Assembly (NCBI GenBank): GCA_963804995.1
Contig: CAWDSK010000003.1
Span: forward strand, 1,120,001-1,184,000
Direction: 5' to 3'
DNA length: 64,000 nucleotides
Source: an uncultured Acidobacteriota bacterium
GTDB lineage: Bacteria > Acidobacteriota > Terriglobia > UBA7540
In this document: piece by piece, positions 478 through 15,003 of the stretch
Position numbering within the stretch: position 1 is the stretch's first letter
Layout: each line of letters begins with the position of its first letter
Notes under the pieces: generated by a model
Seen by the model: only the letters and a program-made list of their open reading frames with translations
Told to the model about the DNA's origin: nothing
Databases searched by the model: none
Position numbers and translations under genes: made by a program

Positions 478-1657
478 TCAATACTTCGGCACCGAGGAAT
501 CAACCTGGTCTGACCACGCCAGGATTCCACCCTTCAAGTTATGGATCTTCCGGAACCCGGACTTCATCAGCAGGTCCACGGCCTTGGCGCTGCGCCCGCC
601 GGATTTGCAATGCACCACGATTTCATCCGCAGAGTCCAGCTCGTTCATGCGCTTGGGCACTTCTCCCAGCGGAATGAGCTTCGAGCCCGGGATGCGGCAA
701 ATCTGGTATTCGTGCGGCTCACGCACATCAATCAGGACGAAGGGTTTCTTCTCGTCCATCATCTTCTTCACGTCCACCGGAGTAATTTCCGGAATGCCGG
801 TTTGCACTGGAGTATGCTCCTCGCCGCGAATGCCGCAGAACTGCTCGTAATCGATCAGCTTGGTGATCGTCCGATGCGTCCCGCAGATCGGGCAATCGGG
901 GTTCTTACGAAGTTTGAGCTCACGAAACTTCATGCCCAATGCATCAAAGAGCAGCAGGCGTCCGATCAGCGGGTCGCCCTTGCCCAGAATCAGCTTGATG
1001 GTTTCCATGGCCTGGATGCAGCCCACAATGCCGGGCAGCACGCCCAACACGCCACCCTCGGCGCAACTCGGGACCAGTCCGGGCGGAGGCGGCTCCGGAT
1101 ACAGGCAGCGGTAGCAGGGGCCTTCCTTGGCGTAGAAGATGGAGGCCTGGCCTTCAAAGCGGAAAATGCTGCCGTAAACATTCGGCTTGTCCAGCAGCAC
1201 GCAGGCGTCGTTTACCAGATATCGCGTGGGAAAATTATCCGTGCCGTCCGCCACGATATCGAATTCCCGGAAAATATCCAGGGCGTTATCGCTCGAACAG
1301 GCGCGTCTCAAAAGTCTCGATTTCGATGTGCGGATTGATTTCCAGCAGCGTGTCGCGGGCGGAATCGAGCTTGGGCCGGCCCACGTCGCTGGTGCCATGG
1401 ATGACCTGCCGTTGCAGGTTGGTGAAATCCACCACGTCAAAATCCACGATGCCGATCTTGCCCACACCTGCGGCCCCCAGGTATAGCGCCAAGGGCGAGC
1501 CCAGGCCACCGGCGCCGATGCAAAGCACCTTGGCCTGCTTCAGCTTCAGTTGGCCCTCCATGCCCACTTCCGGCATGATCAAGTGGCGGCTGTAGCGCAG
1601 GATTTCGTCTTTGCTTAGCTGTGCGGCTTGAATCATTGTCGCTGTACTCATTTCCAA
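478..1657 (-). CDS. moeB: MoeB/ThiF adenylyltransferase-rhodanese fusion (MoeZ/MoeR-like); +1 frameshift near 1296
   Basis: N-terminal ORF 1286-1657 (RYSRHLIMPEVG, GAGGLG, TNLQRQ) joins the C-terminal frame (DGTDNFPTRY, CYRC, CPIC, rhodanese CKSGGRS) if one base is removed at GCTCGAAC. Confidence 0.92.
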
Positions 1658-1816
1658 TCCTTCTCTTGGGAATCTCGTTTCTTATCCCCGGCCAACTGTT
1701 CAAAGTGCAAGAGACGGCATCAACCTATCAGCCGCCTGCCAAAAATCTTTAGGGGGTCTCGGGTGGGATGTGCCCGGGATTCGCCACCCCCGGCCCAGCG
1801 GGGATGGGAGCCCAGG

Positions 1817-2116
1817 CTAGCTACAGATGCAACATAGGTCCGCGCCACCGGCAATGGAAGGCACGATGCTGATCACATCGTTGTTGTTGAGAGGAGTTTG
1901 TTCCTTTTGCAGGAATCGGATGTCTTCGTCGCCCACGTAGATGTTCACAAAGCTGCGCAACTTGCCTTCGTCGTTGTAGAGGTGCTTGCGCAAGTCGCCG
2001 TATAGCGCAGTGATGGCGCCAAGCGCCTCCGCCACGGTCTTCGCTTCCACCTCCAGCGACTCCTTCTTCTCCGCGTATTGCCGCAACGGAGTCGGGATGA
2101 TCACCTTAACTGCCAT
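1817..2116 (-). CDS. MoaD/ThiS/CysO-like ubiquitin-fold sulfur carrier with C-terminal extension after GG
   Basis: IPTPLR...FVNIYVGDEDIR...IVPSIAGG followed by ADLCCICS. Lies between the JAB peptidase and MoeB-rhodanese genes. Confidence 0.9.
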   Translation of the reverse strand: MAVKVIIPTPLRQYAEKKESLEVEAKTVAEALGAITALYGDLRKHLYNDEGKLRSFVNIYVGDEDIRFLQKEQTPLNNNDVISIVPSIAGGADLCCICS

Positions 2117-2133: not shown

Positions 2134-2607
2134 TCAATCACCCATCATAATTGTTTCTGCCCCAAAGGCCGACCGGTCTTCCGCCAACACCCAACTGGTT
2201 AAATCCTTCGGAGCGCCCTGCTCAACAGCAATTATAACATAAGAATACCACGGCCAGGCATGGTCGCGATCGTAATTCGAGGGCCGCGCCGGATGATCGG
2301 GGTGCGAGTGGTAGTAGCCCAGCACGTCAAGCCCCTGCGCCCGCGCGTCCTTTTCCACGTGTAACTGGTCAAGCGGGTCGATCAGGAAGCGGTTCTCCTC
2401 TGTCTCCTTGCCCAGATCATCTACCGGCAAAAGCTCCTGCGCGCGGTTGGGATCGTGTCGCAGGTTCTTAAGTGGGACAACCTCCGTCACCTGCTTCAAG
2501 TCGCCATCCGCCTTGCCGAGCAACATGCCGCAGCACTCGCTGGGATAGTCGCGCGCGGAATGCTGCCGGATCGATTCCAAATGCCCTTTGTTTAGTCGGA
2601 GAGACAT
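2134..2607 (-). CDS. M67/JAB (Mov34/MPN) metallopeptidase, Mec-like
   Basis: YPSECCG and YHSHPDHPARPSNYD JAMM motif. Confidence 0.92.
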   Translation of the reverse strand: MSLRLNKGHLESIRQHSARDYPSECCGMLLGKADGDLKQVTEVVPLKNLRHDPNRAQELLPVDDLGKETEENRFLIDPLDQLHVEKDARAQGLDVLGYYHSHPDHPARPSNYDRDHAWPWYSYVIIAVEQGAPKDLTSWVLAEDRSAFGAETIMMGD

Positions 2608-2759: not shown

Positions 2760-2984
2760 TAGCGTCGTGTCTCAGAAGTTCGCTGATTATTAGAGAACCC
2801 CCTCACCCGTCCCGCCCCGGCTGATGAAAACGCCGGTGGCGGTCCACCCTCTCCCCCAAAGGGGCGAGGGCGACAAATTCAGATTAACTCTCCCCTCGCC
2901 CCTTTGGGGGAGAGGGGCCGGGGGGAGGGGGTCGCCTTTGAACCCAGTGAGACTTTGTCAGCGAACTTCCGATTCAGGACATTA
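2760..2984. mobile_element. MITE: IS-like TIRs enclosing CCCTCACCC/CCCTCTCCC hairpins
   Basis: Left end TAGCGTCGTGTCTCAGAAGTTCGCTGA versus right-end reverse complement TAATGTCCTGAATCGGAAGTTCGCTGA. TTAG at both ends; the right end overlaps the cysM stop codon. Partial copy at 38724. Confidence 0.7.
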
Positions 2985-3938
2985 GCTCCCTTCATCCCAG
3001 AACCGCTCGCTCAAATACTTGTCGCCGCTGTCGGGGAAGATGGTCACCACCACGCCCCTGGTCAACCGGTTCGCCACCGTCAGTGCGGCCACCATGGCGG
3101 CGCCCGCCGAGACTCCCACCAGCAACCCTTCTTCACGAGCCAGCCGCAGCGTCATGCGGTGGGCGTCTTCGGTCGACATTTCCAAGTTCTCATCCGCGAC
3201 GCTCGGATCGTATATGCCGGGCTTGATGGCGGTGGCCATGTGCTTCATGCCTTCCAGACCGTGGAAAGGTGAATCCGGCTGAAACGAAATGCAGCGAATG
3301 CGCGGGTCAAGCTCCTTCAGCCGCCGGGCCGTACCGATGAACGTGCCGCTGGTGCCGAGCCCGGCCACAAAGTGCGTCACCCCGCCTTCCGTCTGCTCGT
3401 ATATTTCGGGAGCGGTGGTCAGGTAATGCGCGCCCCAGTTGGCGGGGTTGTCGTACTGATTGGCGTAAAAATAGAGCTCAGGATTTTCCTTGGCCAGGGC
3501 GCGGACCCGGCGGATCGCCCCATCCGAGCCTTCCATGGGGTCGGTATAAACGATTTCCGCCCCGTAAGCTTTCAGAATGCGTTTGCGCTCCTGGCTCACA
3601 TTCGACGGCATGCAGAGCTTCACGCGGTAGCCCTTGGCGGCGCAAATCATGGCGTAGGCAATGCCCGTGTTGCCGGAGGTTGAGTCGATCAGGACTTTGT
3701 CGTGCGACATCAGCCCGGCGTTTTCGGCCTCGCGGATGATATTGAGCGCCGGACGGTCTTTCACCGAGCCGCCAGGATTCTCCCACTCGGCCTTGGCGTA
3801 GATTTCGACGGAGGGTGAGGCGGGGCGAATGCGCGCGAAGCATACCAATCGCGTGTTCCCTACCAGCGACAGTACATCCGCCGCGCCGCGGGAAGTAGCT
3901 GGATTTTCAGTGGTTGCTGCCCTTGCGTTTTTTGCCAT
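2982..3938 (-). CDS. cysM: PLP-dependent cysteine synthase family protein (CysM-like, probably sulfur-carrier dependent)
   Basis: KAEWENPGGSVKDR (PLP lysine), TSGNTG, GLGTSGT, PDSGDKYLS; clustered with JAB, CysO-like and MoeZ-like genes. Confidence 0.85.
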   Translation of the reverse strand: MAKNARAATTENPATSRGAADVLSLVGNTRLVCFARIRPASPSVEIYAKAEWENPGGSVKDRPALNIIREAENAGLMSHDKVLIDSTSGNTGIAYAMICAAKGYRVKLCMPSNVSQERKRILKAYGAEIVYTDPMEGSDGAIRRVRALAKENPELYFYANQYDNPANWGAHYLTTAPEIYEQTEGGVTHFVAGLGTSGTFIGTARRLKELDPRIRCISFQPDSPFHGLEGMKHMATAIKPGIYDPSVADENLEMSTEDAHRMTLRLAREEGLLVGVSAGAAMVAALTVANRLTRGVVVTIFPDSGDKYLSERFWDEGS

Positions 3939-3956: not shown

Positions 3957-3986
3957 ATTTTAGGGGTTGGTTCACAGAAGTGTCAA
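3957..3986 (-). promoter_or_regulatory. Putative sigma70 promoter of the cys operon
   Basis: Minus strand TTGACA-18 nt-TAAAAT just upstream of the cysM start. Confidence 0.6.
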
Positions 3987-4058: not shown

Positions 4059-4268
4059 CTAGTGTGGTGTCCCGGTTAATATTTGACAAGGCTGTCCGAC
4101 CCCCTCACCCCCCAGCCCCTCTCCCCCAAAGGGGCGAGGGGAGAGTTAATTTTCTTGCCCTCGCCCCTTTGGGGGAGAGGGTGGCTGGCCGAGGCGTTCT
4201 CATCAGCCGAGGCCAGACGGGTGAGGGGGTTTACCCATTGTCAACTCTAACACGGGACACCACACTAG
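4059..4268. mobile_element. MITE with perfect 16-bp TIR enclosing REP-like hairpins
   Basis: CTAGTGTGGTGTCCCG ... CGGGACACCACACTAG, with CTAG at both ends. Confidence 0.75.
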
Positions 4269-5267: not shown

Positions 5268-7187
<1,920 letters not shown>

Positions 7188-7416: not shown

Positions 7417-8826
7417 TTAAATGTCGTAATACAGCGCGAACTCATACGGGTGCGGGCGCGTGTTCACCGCCTGCACTTCGTTCTTCATCTTGTAATCGAT
7501 CCAGGTTTCGATAAGTTCCTCACTGAAGACGTCGCCCTTCAACAGGAAGTCGTGGTCCTTTTCGAGCGCGCGCAGCGACTCCTCAAGCGAGCCCGGCATG
7601 GACGGCACGCTCTTCATTTCCTCCGGCCCGAGGTCGTAGATATCCTTATCCAGCGGCTCTCCGGGGTCAATCTTGTTTTCGACTCCATCCAGCCCTGCCA
7701 TCAGCATCGCGGCAAAAGCCAAGTAGGGATTACAAGAAGGATCCGGCGGCCGGTATTCCACACGTTTGGCCTTGGGATTCGCCGAGTACATGGGAATGCG
7801 GCAGGCCGCACTGCGGTTCCGGCGCGAGTAAGCCAGATTCACCGGCGCCTCATATCCCGGCACCAGGCGTTTGTAGGAATTGGTGGTCGGAGCAATCAGC
7901 GCGGCGAGCGCTGGCGAGTGCTTCAGCAGCCCGCCGATGTAATGCAGCGCCATCTGACTTAGGCCCGCGTATTTGTCTCCGGCAAAGAGCGGCTTGCCCT
8001 CTTTCCAGAGGCTCTGGTGCGTGTGCATGCCGGAGCCGTTGTCCTGATAGATTGGCTTGGGCATGAAGGTCACCGTCTTGCCGTACTGGTGCGCCACATT
8101 GCGGATGCAGTATTTGTAAATCATCATCCCATCCGCGGATTTGAGCAAAGCATTGAAGCGCTGGTCGATTTCCGATTGGCCGCCCGTCGCCACCTCGTGG
8201 TGATGACACTCGATATCGAGTCCGGACTTCTCCATCACCAAAACCATTTCGGTGCGCAAGTCCTGGTAATGATCGGTGGGCGGGACCGGGAAGTAACCCT
8301 CTTTGTAGCGCGGCCGGTAGCCCAGGTTGTCTTTCTCACGGCCCGAGTTCCAGCGGCCTTCCTCGGCGTCGATGAAGTAGAAGCCGTGCTGTTGCGCCTG
8401 GTCGAAGCGCACGTTGTCAAAAATGAAGAATTCGGCTTCCGCCCCGAAGTATGCCGTATCGGCGATGCCCGTATAGGCAAGGTAGTTCTCAGCCTTCTTG
8501 GCAATGTGGCGGGGGTCCTTGATGTAATGCTGCTTGGTTACGGGATCGCTGATGTCACCGATCATGACCAGGGTTGGAGTGTCGGTGAAAGGATCGAGCA
8601 TGTACCAGCTCGGATCGGGAATCAGCAGCATATCGCTTTCATGGATGGCCGCCCAACCGCGAATGCTGGAGCCGTCCATTCCGAAACCTTCTTCAAAGGA
8701 TTTCTCCTTCAACTCATGGATCGGAAACGAAATGTGATGCCAGAGACCGGGAAGGTCGGTGAAGCGAATGTCCACAATCTTGACGTTGTTAGCAGCGGCA
8801 AACTCTAAGACCGCTTTCGGGTTCAT
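7417..8826 (-). CDS. glnA: Glutamine synthetase type I
   Basis: [42 protein letters not shown], adenylylation-site-like DKDIYDL. Confidence 0.97.
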
Positions 8827-10917: not shown

Positions 10918-11628
10918 ATGCGAAAACTAAAACTTTTGACACTAATGGCTCTGGGATTGATGGTCGCCACTTACGCGCGTGCCCAAGGTCCACCGGATCC
11001 AAATTACGATCCGAACTACAATCCGAACCCCGATCCAGGCTATGTGGATCCGGGCCCAGCCCAAGCATATGGGGTTCCATACGGCGCTCCAGTTTACGTG
11101 GGGCCACCTCCGGTGTGCCCGTATGGCTACTTCCCCTATTACCCCTATGCCTGCGCACCCTACGGCTACTATGGACCCAGCTGGTTTTCGGGCGGAATCT
11201 TTATTGGCGTCGGGCCGTGGGGCCATGGCTATCATGGCTTCTACGGGGGACGCGGCTTTGGCGGCCGGGGCAACTACGGACACGGGCCGGCCTATTCCGC
11301 ACGCGGAGGATCTCGCGGTGGGTACGGTAACGGTTACTCCGGCGGAGGCGCACGTACCTTCGGTGGAAATGGTAATGCCTACAGTGGTAGCGCACGAGGC
11401 TTCGGTGGAAGCGCACGAGGTTTCAGTGGAAGTGCACGTGGCTTCGGTGGAAACGCACGTGGCTTCAGTGGCGGCGGACGCTCCTTTGGTGGAAACGGAC
11501 GCAGCTTAGGTGGTGGCGGACGTGGCTTCGGTGGAGGCGGACATGCCTCAGGTGGAGGCGGACATGCCTTTGGAGGAGGTGGACATGGCGGAGGTAAAGG
11601 CAGTTCACATGGTGGTGGGCGCAGGTAA
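10918..11628 (+). CDS. Secreted Pro/Tyr-rich and Gly/Arg-rich low-complexity protein
   Basis: GGAGG RBS; signal peptide ending ARA; PPPVCPYGY segment; tandem ARGF(G/S)G(S/N) repeats. Confidence 0.8.
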   Translation: MRKLKLLTLMALGLMVATYARAQGPPDPNYDPNYNPNPDPGYVDPGPAQAYGVPYGAPVYVGPPPVCPYGYFPYYPYACAPYGYYGPSWFSGGIFIGVGPWGHGYHGFYGGRGFGGRGNYGHGPAYSARGGSRGGYGNGYSGGGARTFGGNGNAYSGSARGFGGSARGFSGSARGFGGNARGFSGGGRSFGGNGRSLGGGGRGFGGGGHASGGGGHAFGGGGHGGGKGSSHGGGRR

Positions 11629-11689: not shown

Positions 11690-12201
11690 AGAAGCCAGGG
11701 GTCACCGGCGCAAAGGACCCTGTCGGCGTCACTCGCGAAAGCGACTTCGCGCGGAGGAACCGCACGCGAAAAGTCATAGGAAAAAAACGCATGAAGTTGG
11801 GAAAGTAAGTGGGACCTCGCTCGCTATGCCCCGCGGAAAGCAACAAGTGGGACAGTCCCACTTCTTTACAAACAGTCGCGGGCCTACAGATTTAAAGTGG
11901 GACAACAGGTGATGCTGAGCCCGACCTCCTCGCTCATCACCCAACCCGACATGCAGATTCCCTCCTCCGGTTCTCACGCCAACTCTAGCAAGAACCGCCG
12001 CGTTTCGAAGCCGGGGGCGCCGCATTGCACACCACAACTTTTTCCCTTTACCTTTGGATTTTCCTCTTCAGCCCCGCGGTGTTGCCCTTCCACCCACGCC
12101 CCAGAGACTCGCAGGCAAATCGGGCACAGACAAATCCGGCATATAAACGTCCGCCTCCTGCCGTGTTAGATTCGCGCCTAATCCCCGGATTGAGGTTCAT
12201 C

Positions 12202-15003
12202 ATGCGAAAAGCTCTTGTGCTCATGTTTCTTCTGCTTGTCCTCCCCGCCGTAGCGGGTGAGGGGCCGCGCTTGCCGATGCAGGCCCGGTTTGAAGACAGC
12301 GCCATGTACCGCTGGCTGCAAAAGCCGGTTCTCGAAACGCGGCTCCTCGACGACATGGAGAATCCCTCCACGTGGGTGCACAGCGGCTTTGGAGAAATGA
12401 CCTTCACCACGGAGCGGGCGATTGACGGCCGCCAGTCGTTGCGCCTTCAGGGCACGCTGGATCTGACCTCGGGCTACCGGTCGCGAACTATCACCGCCAC
12501 CCGCCCCTTCCCGGGCGAGGATTGGAGCAAGTCGAATCGCCTTTCCTTCTGGGTCTACCCCAACCTTCCGGGCTTCCACAACATCTCGATGCAAGTCTCT
12601 TTGCACAACGACGGCGCGTACAAGGTCCCCACCATGTGGAACCGCGAGGGGTTCAACACTTTCGAACTGGAAAACCAGAAGTGGAACCACATCGTCTGGG
12701 AGATTGCGAATCTGGCGCGCGACAAGGTGACGAGCGTGGTGATCGAATACCTGAACGACGGACGCGAGCCGCAGGCGGACCCCGTGGTCACATTTGATCT
12801 CGACCACCTGGAGCTCCAGCGCGTCGACGCTGACCACTTCGAGGGCTGGAACGTTGCCCCCGGCCGGATTTCTTTTAGCTCGAGCGGCTACGGGACTGGC
12901 GCCCCCAAGACCGCCCTCGCGAGCAACCTTACGGCGCGCGAATTCAGCGTCGTGCGGCAGGACACGGGCGAAGTCGTCCTCACGAAAGCCGTGCGGGATC
13001 TAGAAACCGGCATCGGCCACTTCGAGGTTCTGGATTTCTCCGAGGTCCGCGCCCCGGGTCTTTATGTGCTCAAGGCAGGCAGCGAGCAGACGCCGCCCTT
13101 CCCGATTGGTGACAACGTGTGGCGTAGCGCCATCTTCAAGGCCATCAACTTTTTTTATACGGAGCGATGCGGCACGGAGATTCCCGGCGTGCACGGGGTC
13201 TGCCACCTGGACTGGCAGGGAGTGCGCGGCGACAAGCGCATCATCATCAATGGCGGCTGGCACGATGCAGGCGACCTTTCGCAACTGCTGTTCAACACTG
13301 GCGAGGCCGTTTACGCCATGCTGAATCTAGCGGAAAAACTCCGGATGCGGGACCAAGACCCTGAACTTTCCGGCCGCCTGGTGGAGGAAGCGAAGTGGGG
13401 CCTCGAGTGGATTCTCAAAACCAATATGGGTGATGGCTACCGCATTGTGGCCTCAGGCATGGGTCACTGGACAGACGGCATCCTGGGAAATGGCGACGAC
13501 ATCGTGGAGCAAGCGAACCAGGCGCCCTATGAGGACTTTCTCGCGGCGGCGGCGGAAGCGCTGGCGGCGCGCGTGCTCAAGACGGATGACCCGGGCCTTG
13601 CCGCCTACAGCCTGCGCATGGCGCGCGACGACTGGCGATTCGGCGTCGAGGCCATGGGCATCAAGGAGCCGCGCCGCGACACGCTGGGCGAAAAAATCGA
13701 CGAGCTCTCGACGGGCGTGCTGGCCTCGCTCGATTTGTACCGCGCCACGGGCGAGCCGCGCTATGCCGACAAGGCCCGCGAATATGGTCAGGTGCTGGTG
13801 TCCATGCAGGAGCGCAAGCTTCATGCCGACTGGAAAGCGCCCATCACGGGCTACTTTTACACCAGTCCCGAAAAAGACGAACTCCAACATTACAGCCATC
13901 CCGGCCACGCCCAGGGCCCCATGGTCGCGCTCACCCGCCTGTGCGAGGATTTCCCCAACAACCCCGACTGGATGAAATGGTATGCGGCCGTGGCGCTGCA
14001 CTCCGAGTACTTCTTGCAAGCGATGGCGCAGTTCACGGAACCTTACAGCGTGCTGCCCGCCTCGGTGTATCGCGACGATGAGTATTTGCGGGCGCCTGAG
14101 GACCGGCGCGATTCCTATCGGCGGCAAATCCTGAACGGAATCGAAATCGGCAAGGGATATCATCTGCGCCTCTTCCCGGTGTGGTTCGAGCGGCGGGGGA
14201 CGAACGGCACGGGGCTATCAGAAAGCAAGGCGCTTTCCGCCGCGGCGCACCTGCGCGGGAGTCTCGTGGCAGCGGACCTGGCAGAGAAACAGTTGGAATG
14301 GATTGCCGGGCGGAATCCCTTCGCGCAAAGCATCATGTACGGCGAGGGCTACGACTTCGCGCCCATGTACTCTCCCGCGTCCGGTGACATCGTGGGCGCG
14401 CTCTCCGTGGGCATCGAGGCGCGCGATGACAGCGATATACCTTACTGGCCCGCCGCCACCTGCTACAACTACAAAGAAGTTTGGACGCACGCCGTTTCCC
14501 GCTGGCTTTATCTGGTGCAGGATCTGGCCGGTCCCGGGCTGGTCATGGGCCGCGCCCAGGGTGGGGAGCTGGAATTTCGTGGGAAGGACAGCGACCAGAC
14601 CATCCGGGTGCCGGTCGATCCCGCCACCGGCGCCTTCCGCGCCTGGTTGCCGGAAGGTACGTACGAGGTGCAGGGAAAGTCCCTGACCGTTCTGCCCAGC
14701 GCCACGTATGACCTCAACCTAATACCAGGTCACGACTTCAACCTCGCGTTGACGCAGAAAACGGACCGGGCCGGCCGAGTTTCCATCAGCATCACCGCGC
14801 GCGGCAAAGGTACTCACCAACTGGCATTCCGCACGGATAACCTTGCGCTCGCCCGGCAGGTGGTCACGCTGAATCTGGATTCACCCAGCGGTGGGACGAT
14901 GACACTCGAAGGCAAAGTCGATGCCCTAGATAGCCCCTGGGTCGCGGTGGTGGTCCCTGATAACAATCTGGCGGAGAGGCAGGAACTCCTCGGCGCCCCT
15001 TGA
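12202..15003 (+). CDS. Secreted glycoside hydrolase family 9-like protein (Ig-like plus alpha/alpha barrel)
   Basis: Signal peptide MRKALVLMFLLL; GGWHDAGD motif; EEAKWGLEWILK; GRNPF. Confidence 0.8.
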   Translation: MRKALVLMFLLLVLPAVAGEGPRLPMQARFEDSAMYRWLQKPVLETRLLDDMENPSTWVHSGFGEMTFTTERAIDGRQSLRLQGTLDLTSGYRSRTITATRPFPGEDWSKSNRLSFWVYPNLPGFHNISMQVSLHNDGAYKVPTMWNREGFNTFELENQKWNHIVWEIANLARDKVTSVVIEYLNDGREPQADPVVTFDLDHLELQRVDADHFEGWNVAPGRISFSSSGYGTGAPKTALASNLTAREFSVVRQDTGEVVLTKAVRDLETGIGHFEVLDFSEVRAPGLYVLKAGSEQTPPFPIGDNVWRSAIFKAINFFYTERCGTEIPGVHGVCHLDWQGVRGDKRIIINGGWHDAGDLSQLLFNTGEAVYAMLNLAEKLRMRDQDPELSGRLVEEAKWGLEWILKTNMGDGYRIVASGMGHWTDGILGNGDDIVEQANQAPYEDFLAAAAEALAARVLKTDDPGLAAYSLRMARDDWRFGVEAMGIKEPRRDTLGEKIDELSTGVLASLDLYRATGEPRYADKAREYGQVLVSMQERKLHADWKAPITGYFYTSPEKDELQHYSHPGHAQGPMVALTRLCEDFPNNPDWMKWYAAVALHSEYFLQAMAQFTEPYSVLPASVYRDDEYLRAPEDRRDSYRRQILNGIEIGKGYHLRLFPVWFERRGTNGTGLSESKALSAAAHLRGSLVAADLAEKQLEWIAGRNPFAQSIMYGEGYDFAPMYSPASGDIVGALSVGIEARDDSDIPYWPAATCYNYKEVWTHAVSRWLYLVQDLAGPGLVMGRAQGGELEFRGKDSDQTIRVPVDPATGAFRAWLPEGTYEVQGKSLTVLPSATYDLNLIPGHDFNLALTQKTDRAGRVSISITARGKGTHQLAFRTDNLALARQVVTLNLDSPSGGTMTLEGKVDALDSPWVAVVVPDNNLAERQELLGAP

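Follow-up and report, generated by a model that had tools for sequence, protein, structure and literature searches.

The Cys codons that close the gene of a ubiquitin-like sulfur carrier in the window (the whole 64,000-nucleotide stretch of Acidobacteriota DNA analyzed here) probably form a mid-operon attenuator that senses cysteine and controls moeZ, the next gene, a reading to which we give odds of roughly three in four. In related genomes the same element would occur either fused to the carrier or as a free mini-ORF. The argument is comparative, drawing on reading frame, codon bias, position, free ORFs and a hairpin, and it favors the Cys-tRNA-sensing attenuator that an initial annotation of this DNA had offered as an alternative.

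The operon and the carrier tail

The minus strand carries, in this order, a sigma-70-like promoter, a cysteine synthase family gene, a JAB protease gene, the carrier and moeZ, with the following features.

3957..3986, minus strand: sigma-70-like promoter ahead of the cysteine synthase gene, matching 11 of 12 consensus bases (consensus match only)
2982..3938, minus strand: gene of the PLP cysteine synthase family, CysM-like (TIGR01138, E 5e-106, under the equivalog cut-off)
2134..2607, minus strand: JAB/JAMM metalloprotease, Mec-like (PF14464, E 1e-28), with the motif HSH-x7-S-x2-D
2116..1817, minus strand: carrier ORF of 99 aa, ending in IAGG-ADLCCICS-TAG
1844..2116, minus strand: ubiquitin-like carrier body, CysO-like, ending in Gly-Gly (PF02597, E 7e-12)
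1820..1843, minus strand: tail ADLCCICS, 8 codons, with proposed sensor codons TGT 1834-1832, TGC 1831-1829 and TGT 1825-1823
1817..1819, minus strand: TAG stop; pairing of the hairpin starts at its G (G-C in 53 of 53 aligned loci)
1772..1817, minus strand: conserved hairpin with a 7-bp near-constant lower stem and a variable upper stem, -33 kcal/mol
1747..1771, minus strand: C-rich, G-poor tract 3' of the hairpin, a candidate Rho loading region (C/G 2.1 over 50 loci)
478..1651, minus strand: moeZ (E1 plus rhodanese), with its ATG at 1651, the proposed regulated gene

A ThiS/MoaD-fold carrier ending in GG, a JAB protein with a JAMM motif, a PLP cysteine synthase and an E1-rhodanese protein thus lie in one cluster, and family assignment suggests a cysteine pathway of the CysM/Mec/CysO/MoeZ type. 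The fold of the carrier was matched in the PDB by 3dwg_C (E 5e-12), which we take to be the Mycobacterium tuberculosis CysO chain. Sequence scores did not separate the CysK and CysM subtypes of cysteine synthase, and O-phosphoserine and the carrier thiocarboxylate are putative substrates, assigned from the pathway family. The JAB protein, a type of protein whose binding to carriers is textbook knowledge, is expected by analogy with known systems to trim the tail and to release cysteine. The closest named relatives were mostly genomes labeled as Terriglobia or Acidobacteriota. The promoter is probably the start of the operon; the same consensus scan gave no promoter-like site within 1652-1816, suggesting that moeZ is co-transcribed with the upstream genes.

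In the assembly, moeZ is split into frames of 123 and 270 residues by a one-base insertion near 1296-1297, a site that is intact in the 24 relatives shown. The extra base is probably an assembly error, the alternative being a recent pseudogene. Were the frameshift real, the element here could be relevant only to the cysK and cysE-like genes that follow, whose co-transcription is putative. These two genes (cysK scoring above the TIGR01139 cut-off; L347:13122-14078 and 12010-12945, minus strand, leftwards from window position 77) place both cysteine routes side by side here, and a cysK-like gene after moeZ was found in only 2 of the 17 hairpin-clade loci with enough flank.

Other features of the window were recorded as well. 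Long intergenic inverted repeats occur at 2764-2980 and 4059-4268, as well as at 268-417 and 2621-2755, falling inside the operon (in the gap between cysM and JAB) and between moeZ and cysK; they include a 24-nt palindromic unit present as two facing pairs (2847-2916 and 4117-4181) and are REP- or MITE-like. A group II intron reverse transcriptase/maturase (5387-6703, minus strand, above the TIGR04416 cut-off) lies just downstream of a glutamine synthetase-like gene (7417-8826) that was recognized by eye. A 236-residue ORF at 10918-11628 on the plus strand has a signal-like start, a Pro/Tyr-rich middle and Gly-rich repeats.

To place the tail in context, 340 carrier loci were collected, of which 318 were distinct. 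They came from relatives, from 80 of the 327 confirmed matches in named genomes, from 80 of 565 in metagenomes, from a phylum sample and from f10, another family of the window's class (90 of its 155 genomes with a match, ranked by similarity to one f10 carrier). The sample is non-random and its loci are kin, so that counts overstate independence. The loci fell into 54 with a CxCx tail plus hairpin (the hairpin clade), 45 with other multi-Cys tails, 41 with free Cys mini-ORFs, 28 with one-Cys tails, 123 with Cys-free tails, 25 fused to MoeZ and 2 set aside. One locus, L298, was moved to the one-Cys class and is outside the free-ORF counts, its apparent free ORF being a false one that runs into the moeZ start. 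Two unrooted trees took in 238 and 88 of the 318 loci.

As the initial annotation had pointed out, the carrier continues past GG for eight residues that include three Cys. The conservation check that it proposed gave a clear result: among genomes of the window's own family, f1, taken irrespective of their tails, at least two post-GG Cys were present in 30 of the 31 with a match, and given a Cys frequency of 0.94% across the genome's long ORFs, the tail lies beyond chance. A C-x-C-x end was also found in 111 of the 119 carriers with a parsed GG among the best 120 protein homologues, a count biased upward by the inclusion of the tail in the query. Tails of the 54 hairpin-clade loci have lengths of 8, 12, 13, 16, 17 or 24 residues, contain 2 to 4 Cys and begin with 13 different residues; the last Cys always lies two codons before the stop. 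The tail Cys are anchored to the stop rather than to GG, and the CCxC octapeptide that the annotation took as the unit gives way to a constant core of TGT-NNN-TAG followed by the hairpin.

Having some tail is ordinary. Carriers ending at GG made up only 4 of the 318 loci, nearly all split carriers being tailed, and the need for JAB trimming would accordingly be ordinary too, with trimming in this operon assumed by analogy. Neither a Cys tail nor a Cys ORF was present in 123 of the 318 loci. The C-termini of JAB (8 Cys in 2130 terminal residues) and CysM (3 Cys in 1930) were ruled out as alternative hosts of the tract.

Several loci departed from the common pattern. In L015, L017 and L020, from the window's genus, the hairpin is lost, the spacer is only 28-34 nt and the tails end in CCN or CCC; these form a minimal version, in which a stalled ribosome would be near the moeZ start site. 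In L021 (G001) the conserved TAG is TAC, and the CICS tail extends through the hairpin to 55 residues, by natural stop loss or by error. L144 encodes a carrier joined straight to a rhodanese-like segment (a 109-residue extension, judged by eye), with no E1 domain. L021 and L144 are the two loci set aside as "other". Four loci of family f18 (L225, L226, L227 and L238) have a carrier that ends at GG in three of the four, followed by cysteine synthase, with no JAB or moeZ match within the stretch fetched.

The split form itself probably arose by fission. Fusion of carrier and MoeZ in long open frames is common elsewhere in the phylum; all 9 phylum-sample loci that were picked as long frames were fused, and the set contains 25 fused loci. 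This would suit a neutral relic of a split carrier-MoeZ fusion, a possibility also raised by the initial annotation, as would the arbitrary look of most Cys-free tails. That idea is half right, in that fusion is common; the relic part does not hold, since the linkers of fused proteins contain 0 Cys in 300 residues and the tail Cys are therefore not linker leftovers. With tails enriched in Cys about 12-fold, in frame and with a biased codon choice, we regard a neutral relic as scarcely credible. The order would be fission first and sensor later, the trees being unrooted. No tract-bearing locus (n = 132) has moeZ less than 28 nt away, whereas 58 of 115 Cys-free loci do. Neither the association of the tract with a long spacer nor that with TAG was significant in tests limited to 7 supported independent pairs (median p 0.5).

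Codon choice and free poly-Cys mini-ORFs

Each of the 54 hairpin-clade loci has TGT as its last Cys codon. By comparison, the commonest codon reaches only 43-83% at 20 conserved carrier positions, and TGT makes up 25% of Cys codons in the genome, 15% when followed by AG, and 15-22% in neighboring genes. Outside the hairpin clade, 149 split tails (counted at a stage of 230 loci) contained 109 Cys in 908 residues; of the tandem Cys codons, 43 lay in the reading frame and one outside it, with in-frame counts of 87 for TGT and 22 for TGC. Free ORFs had a TGT:TGC ratio of 168:75 and other multi-Cys tails one of 122:30, and the preference peaked inside runs, with TGT in 174 of 207 codons that precede another Cys. 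The in-frame position of the Cys argues against an RNA-only motif, and the synonymous bias argues against a protein-only motif; the constraint acts on codons and position rather than on the protein. Only one Cys anticodon was found in the genome, that of tRNA-Cys(GCA), and slower wobble decoding of TGT by this tRNA is our guess for the preference, with an unstructured tract or avoidance of CTG repeats as alternatives. Outside the window, 26 tRNA genes including a second tRNA-Cys lie within about 4 kb (G000:C5:1304904-1309125), and a tRNA-Sec gene is on C3.

These counts bear on a purely RNA-based reading, in which a UGU-rich site for a nuclease or RNA-binding protein, together with a stabilizing hairpin, sets the level of moeZ mRNA and the Cys codons are a by-product. 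The strong TGT preference, highest in runs, would fit it, as would the inclusion of the stop codon in the stem and the presence of RNase J in the genome. Against it are the confinement of the motif to one frame, the TGC codons mixed in, and the free tracts with their ATG starts and Shine-Dalgarno-like sites, leaving this reading decidedly improbable.

The free tracts were found mainly in f10. In 40 of the 105 split loci of this family, a short-tailed carrier (often with one Arg) is followed by a separate, unannotated poly-Cys mini-ORF before moeZ; one metagenome locus, L182, has the same arrangement, making 41. The criterion was a separate open frame between carrier and moeZ with at least three Cys in its last ten codons. 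Of these 41 ORFs, 39 start with ATG, one with a GTG that overlaps the carrier stop, and one has no clear start; the start mostly lies within 30 nt of the carrier stop, with ATG 4 nt after it in 15 of 40, and the tracts end 37-76 nt before moeZ in 40 of 41. Stops were TAG in 34 of 41 free ORFs, compared with 6 of 42 of the carriers' own stops. Among 76 f10 spacers of at least 60 nt, such ORFs numbered 40 in the sense orientation, 0 in antisense and 5 in the reversed sequence, and a Cys-tract ORF occurred in 1 of 104 upstream 200-nt windows. The Gly-Gly codons read GGAGG, resembling a Shine-Dalgarno sequence, in 29 of 40 free-ORF loci versus 1 of 54 in the hairpin clade. Ancestry accounts for part of this signal: GGAGG or GGGGGC is retained by 8 of 9 long-tailed relatives within f10. 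Taken together, these features suggest that the free mini-ORFs are translated, as the fused tail must be, belonging as it does to the carrier ORF.

Free and fused forms interchange within one clade. In a clade of 58 rows with 98% support, eight tree genomes have the tract fused as an in-frame tail of 20-32 residues, and free and fused forms changed 7 times on the tree of 238 rows and 8 times on that of 88 rows. A free locus (L254) and a fused one (L274) form a sister pair with 96% support.

A tract found both on and off the carrier cannot, as a general rule, serve to gate it. The initial annotation had also considered a redox or metal gate on carrier activation. Here the tail Cys would coordinate a metal, either the JAB zinc or another, and hold back carrier maturation until they are oxidized or metal-loaded; the CxC motif beside a zinc protease and the upregulation of the mycobacterial pathway by oxidative stress, as given in the cited passages (PMC3227635), would be in keeping with it. 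The 41 loci in which the tract is off the carrier speak against this proposal. The distance from GG to the Cys, ranging from 0 to about 30 residues, and the constraints on codons and hairpin, which it would not explain, also count against it, and we consider it very unlikely.

The stop-linked hairpin and the proposed mechanism

In the window the stop codon opens a hairpin. The spacer had been described as GC-rich and about 160 bp long; its length is indeed 165 nt to the moeZ ATG, and only its first third is GC-rich (76%, 55% and 46% by thirds, with the genome at 58%). Over 53 loci the lower stem is 97.8% paired, with 10 changes from G-C to A-U at one pair, and its score was reached in 0 of 500 shuffles, a control inflated by kinship. 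The upper stem varies in sequence and length and still folds, with a mean z of -3.2 compared with about 0 in other classes; the window's hairpin alone has a z of only -1.95. TAG and the first bases of the stem had been among the criteria for the hairpin class, so the comparison was repeated free of these filters: TAG follows 58 of 60 split tails ending in C-x-C-x, and in a class drawn without the hairpin criterion the bases after the stop are paired in 53 of 53. A strong hairpin opening at the G of the stop was found at 58 loci, all with TGT two codons before the stop, and at 0 of 123 Cys-free loci; L194 has a strong stop-linked hairpin with a single Cys.

Other explanations of the hairpin were rejected. 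A search by blastn and a motif scan gave no second copy of the spacer or hairpin in the genome, excluding a mobile or REP-like repeat. Rfam returned over the tail and spacer only a CRISPR-repeat match of 22 bits and E 1.3 (1651-1674), under the gathering score, and thus no credible known RNA family or riboswitch. Readthrough of TAG to rebuild a carrier-MoeZ fusion was discarded, because spacer frames vary over 30 loci and stops intervene; the path from TAG to moeZ is in phase and free of stops only in L026 and L027, and the window has two further stops.

The hairpin also bears on a reading in which the Cys-rich peptide acts in trans, as a metal or sulfane-sulfur binder, a partner of the MoeZ rhodanese or a modified-peptide precursor, either made as a mini-protein of its own or cut from the carrier by JAB. 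Such a peptide would account equally well for in-frame Cys and for free and fused forms, and it would suit the free peptides with up to 10 Cys and the well-kept R-C-I-C-S of the hairpin clade. It would leave unexplained the invariant TGT (54/54), the TAG bias of free ORFs (34/41 vs 6/42) and the hairpin, non-Cys residues are not conserved, and tails are reduced to CC, CCR, CCL or a single Cys ahead of the hairpin (L334, L233, L228 and L194). For a thiazole/oxazole precursor, moreover, the YcaO cyclodehydratase was not found in 5 of 5 genomes searched, which were 92-100% complete. We hold a peptide acting in trans to be unlikely, though the likeliest of the rivals to a cysteine-sensing attenuator.

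The attenuator would work as follows. The Cys codons just before the carrier stop would serve as a cis gauge of Cys-tRNA supply for moeZ. When cysteine is short, the ribosome would wait at the Cys codons beside the stop, the hairpin would stay folded and moeZ would be expressed; when cysteine is ample, the ribosome would reach TAG with the lower stem melted and then leave, exposing the downstream RNA, so that moeZ expression would fall. The peptide would be disposable, JAB cutting after GG as for any tail, and because of this trimming the tail would be cost-free. The f10 form would be the same sensor as a free mini-ORF started just behind the carrier stop. Ribosome stalling, the direction of control and moeZ as the target are what we infer from the comparative picture. 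With a modeled ribosome footprint, pairing of the lower stem was 0.98 at the first Cys codon and 0.62 at the last; a footprint at the stop masks the stem by construction and describes geometry rather than a result.

Granted this mechanism, Rho-dependent termination is the leading guess for the output, at a little under even odds; translation initiation and mRNA cleavage or stability would be equally placed well behind it, and anything else would be improbable. The genome contains rho, and f10 spacers contain 523 C and 335 G. Exposed YC dinucleotides barely differed among ribosome states in the model (5.5, 6.2, 4.9 and 6.0), so that for a Rho step the modeling offers nothing beyond the C-over-G skew, and the f10 gap of 37-76 nt is short, given the optimum of 60-90 nt for Rho-dependent control stated in the cited section of PMC12360218. 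Control through mRNA decay is possible, RNase J being present in the genome. A conserved hairpin is missing from the f10 tracts, so the free and fused forms may differ in their output mechanism.

Folding lent no support in either architecture to occlusion of the Shine-Dalgarno sequence or start codon. The opening energy of the moeZ start region was about equal for a ribosome on the Cys codons and one on the stop codon (7.99, 7.86 and 7.88 kcal/mol, n = 50), and over 52 f10 loci it was 8.9 with no ribosome, 8.0 with a stalled one and 9.4 in the shuffled control. The probability of pairing between Cys tract and Shine-Dalgarno sequence exceeded 0.3 in only 10 of 52 f10 loci, with no gain over controls; a few loci, such as L185, pair well between tract and start region. 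Recoding TGT to TGC in silico brought no change (p 0.29). The window spacer has no intrinsic terminator (hairpin plus U-run), and a loose terminator scan was positive in 0 of 41 free-ORF, 7 of 40 multi-Cys and 12 of 51 hairpin-clade loci.

When the window's genome was scanned for similar sensors elsewhere in sulfur metabolism, 14 candidates emerged; their downstream genes were unannotated, and none was obviously a sulfur gene. This negative is a weak one: a downstream ORF of 150 aa or more was a condition of the scan, and with moeZ frameshifted the tail in the window itself escaped it. A strict DNA pattern applied to five f10 genomes, a weak search, recovered the known tract in two genomes and three other matches, with no second element: the matches in L343 and L345 lie inside long opposite-strand ORFs, and L346 has no Cys-tract ORF of at least 20 aa. 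In f10 genomes where JAB is not adjacent to the carrier, it was present in 4 of 5; in the hairpin clade JAB lies upstream of the carrier in 53 of 54 loci, the sole exception being a truncated contig.

Comparison with known systems

Poly-Cys short ORFs are proven attenuators in mycobacteria (Canestrari et al., 10.1101/834739). The examples Ms5788A and Rv2334A are described there as leaderless, with as few as two consecutive Cys counted, and the cited part of PMC13236596 repeats the mycobacterial case only. Loss of tRNA-Cys in M. tuberculosis is stated to cause ribosome stalling at Cys codons (PMC13096801, cited section). The element described here shares with the Ms5788A class the clustering of in-frame Cys codons at the 3' end of a short frame missed by annotation, and a same-strand cysteine or sulfur gene directly downstream, here moeZ; a cysteine response dependent on the Cys codons would be predicted here by analogy. 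It differs in lying in mid-operon, as the third gene or as a mini-ORF behind the carrier, rather than at a leaderless 5' end, and it adds the TGT and TAG biases and the stop-linked hairpin. The mechanism outlined for Ms5788A, pairing of the tract with the downstream Shine-Dalgarno sequence, was not found here by folding.

Rho-dependent control has been proposed for actinobacterial cys leaders (PMC1262725, in the passage cited). With the Rho attenuators tnaC and speFL, as summarized in PMC12360218, the element would share a ribosome held at or near the stop, then C-rich RNA, and the lack of an intrinsic terminator. In those two, as presented there, an arrest peptide detects a free ligand inside the exit tunnel, whereas here the signal would be hungry codons, with no conserved arrest sequence. 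A comparable case is uORFC-8-2 before cysS in Rhodobacterales, a predicted element with two Cys codons and conserved stems that was proposed to sense Cys-tRNA (PMC8632094); in the description cited it has an intrinsic terminator with a U-run, mostly UGC codons and a stand-alone uORF, and in these it differs from the element here.

The four gene families are those of the CysO/CysM/Mec+/MoeZR pathway of M. tuberculosis (PMC3227635, cited portion), and operon class 4c of Iyer et al. 2006 already includes an acidobacterium (PMC1779556, likewise). The cited parts of both reports mention no Cys tail, mini-ORF or attenuation. The PDB chain 3dwg_C ends at GG, in contrast to the Cys-tailed carrier here. 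Trimming after GG is described for QbsE by QbsD and proposed for CxnE by CxnF (PMC5925218, cited section). Like QbsE (GG-CF, thus with a Cys) and CxnE (GG plus ten residues), the carrier would have an extension removed by a JAMM protease; the section cited describes no regulatory role for those extensions (PMC5925218), whereas one is proposed here. In the open-licence literature we found no description of this element, most subscription papers lying outside that scope.

Our wider proposal, which we think somewhat better than an even bet, is that Terriglobia repeatedly wrote a cysteine-sensing leader into the disposable C-terminal extension of a working carrier; a single gene would thus provide carrier and sensor alike, JAB would erase the sensor, and the sensor would set the level of the carrier's own activating enzyme, with switching between free and fused forms, a preference for wobble-read UGU and, in one clade, a hairpin that begins in the stop codon, so that a stalled and a terminating ribosome would leave the RNA in different states. 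Should this be right, an attenuator that senses an amino acid would not have to be a separate leader opening the transcript, and may hide in the last codons of a normal gene where a protease removes them and searches for uORFs miss them. It would also give a reason for the conserved post-GG extensions of some ubiquitin-like sulfur carriers, and would mean feedback control of a carrier-based cysteine pathway at the MoeZ step. The survey also contributes a family of poly-Cys mini-genes, absent from annotations, in a soil bacterial group that is common, and testing the idea would cost little, given the natural free/fused pairs and the invariant UGU codon.

In secM/secA and mifM/yidC2, the ribosome is stalled by the C-terminal end that the upstream gene encodes, which sets the expression of the gene that follows. 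SecM and MifM are dedicated monitor proteins with arrest sequences, whereas the host here is a working pathway protein, and the sensor, unlike theirs, would be removed by the pathway's own protease. The type of sensor is already known; the open-licence literature searched gave no mid-operon version like the one proposed here, switching between a free ORF and the protease-removed tail of a working ubiquitin-like carrier.
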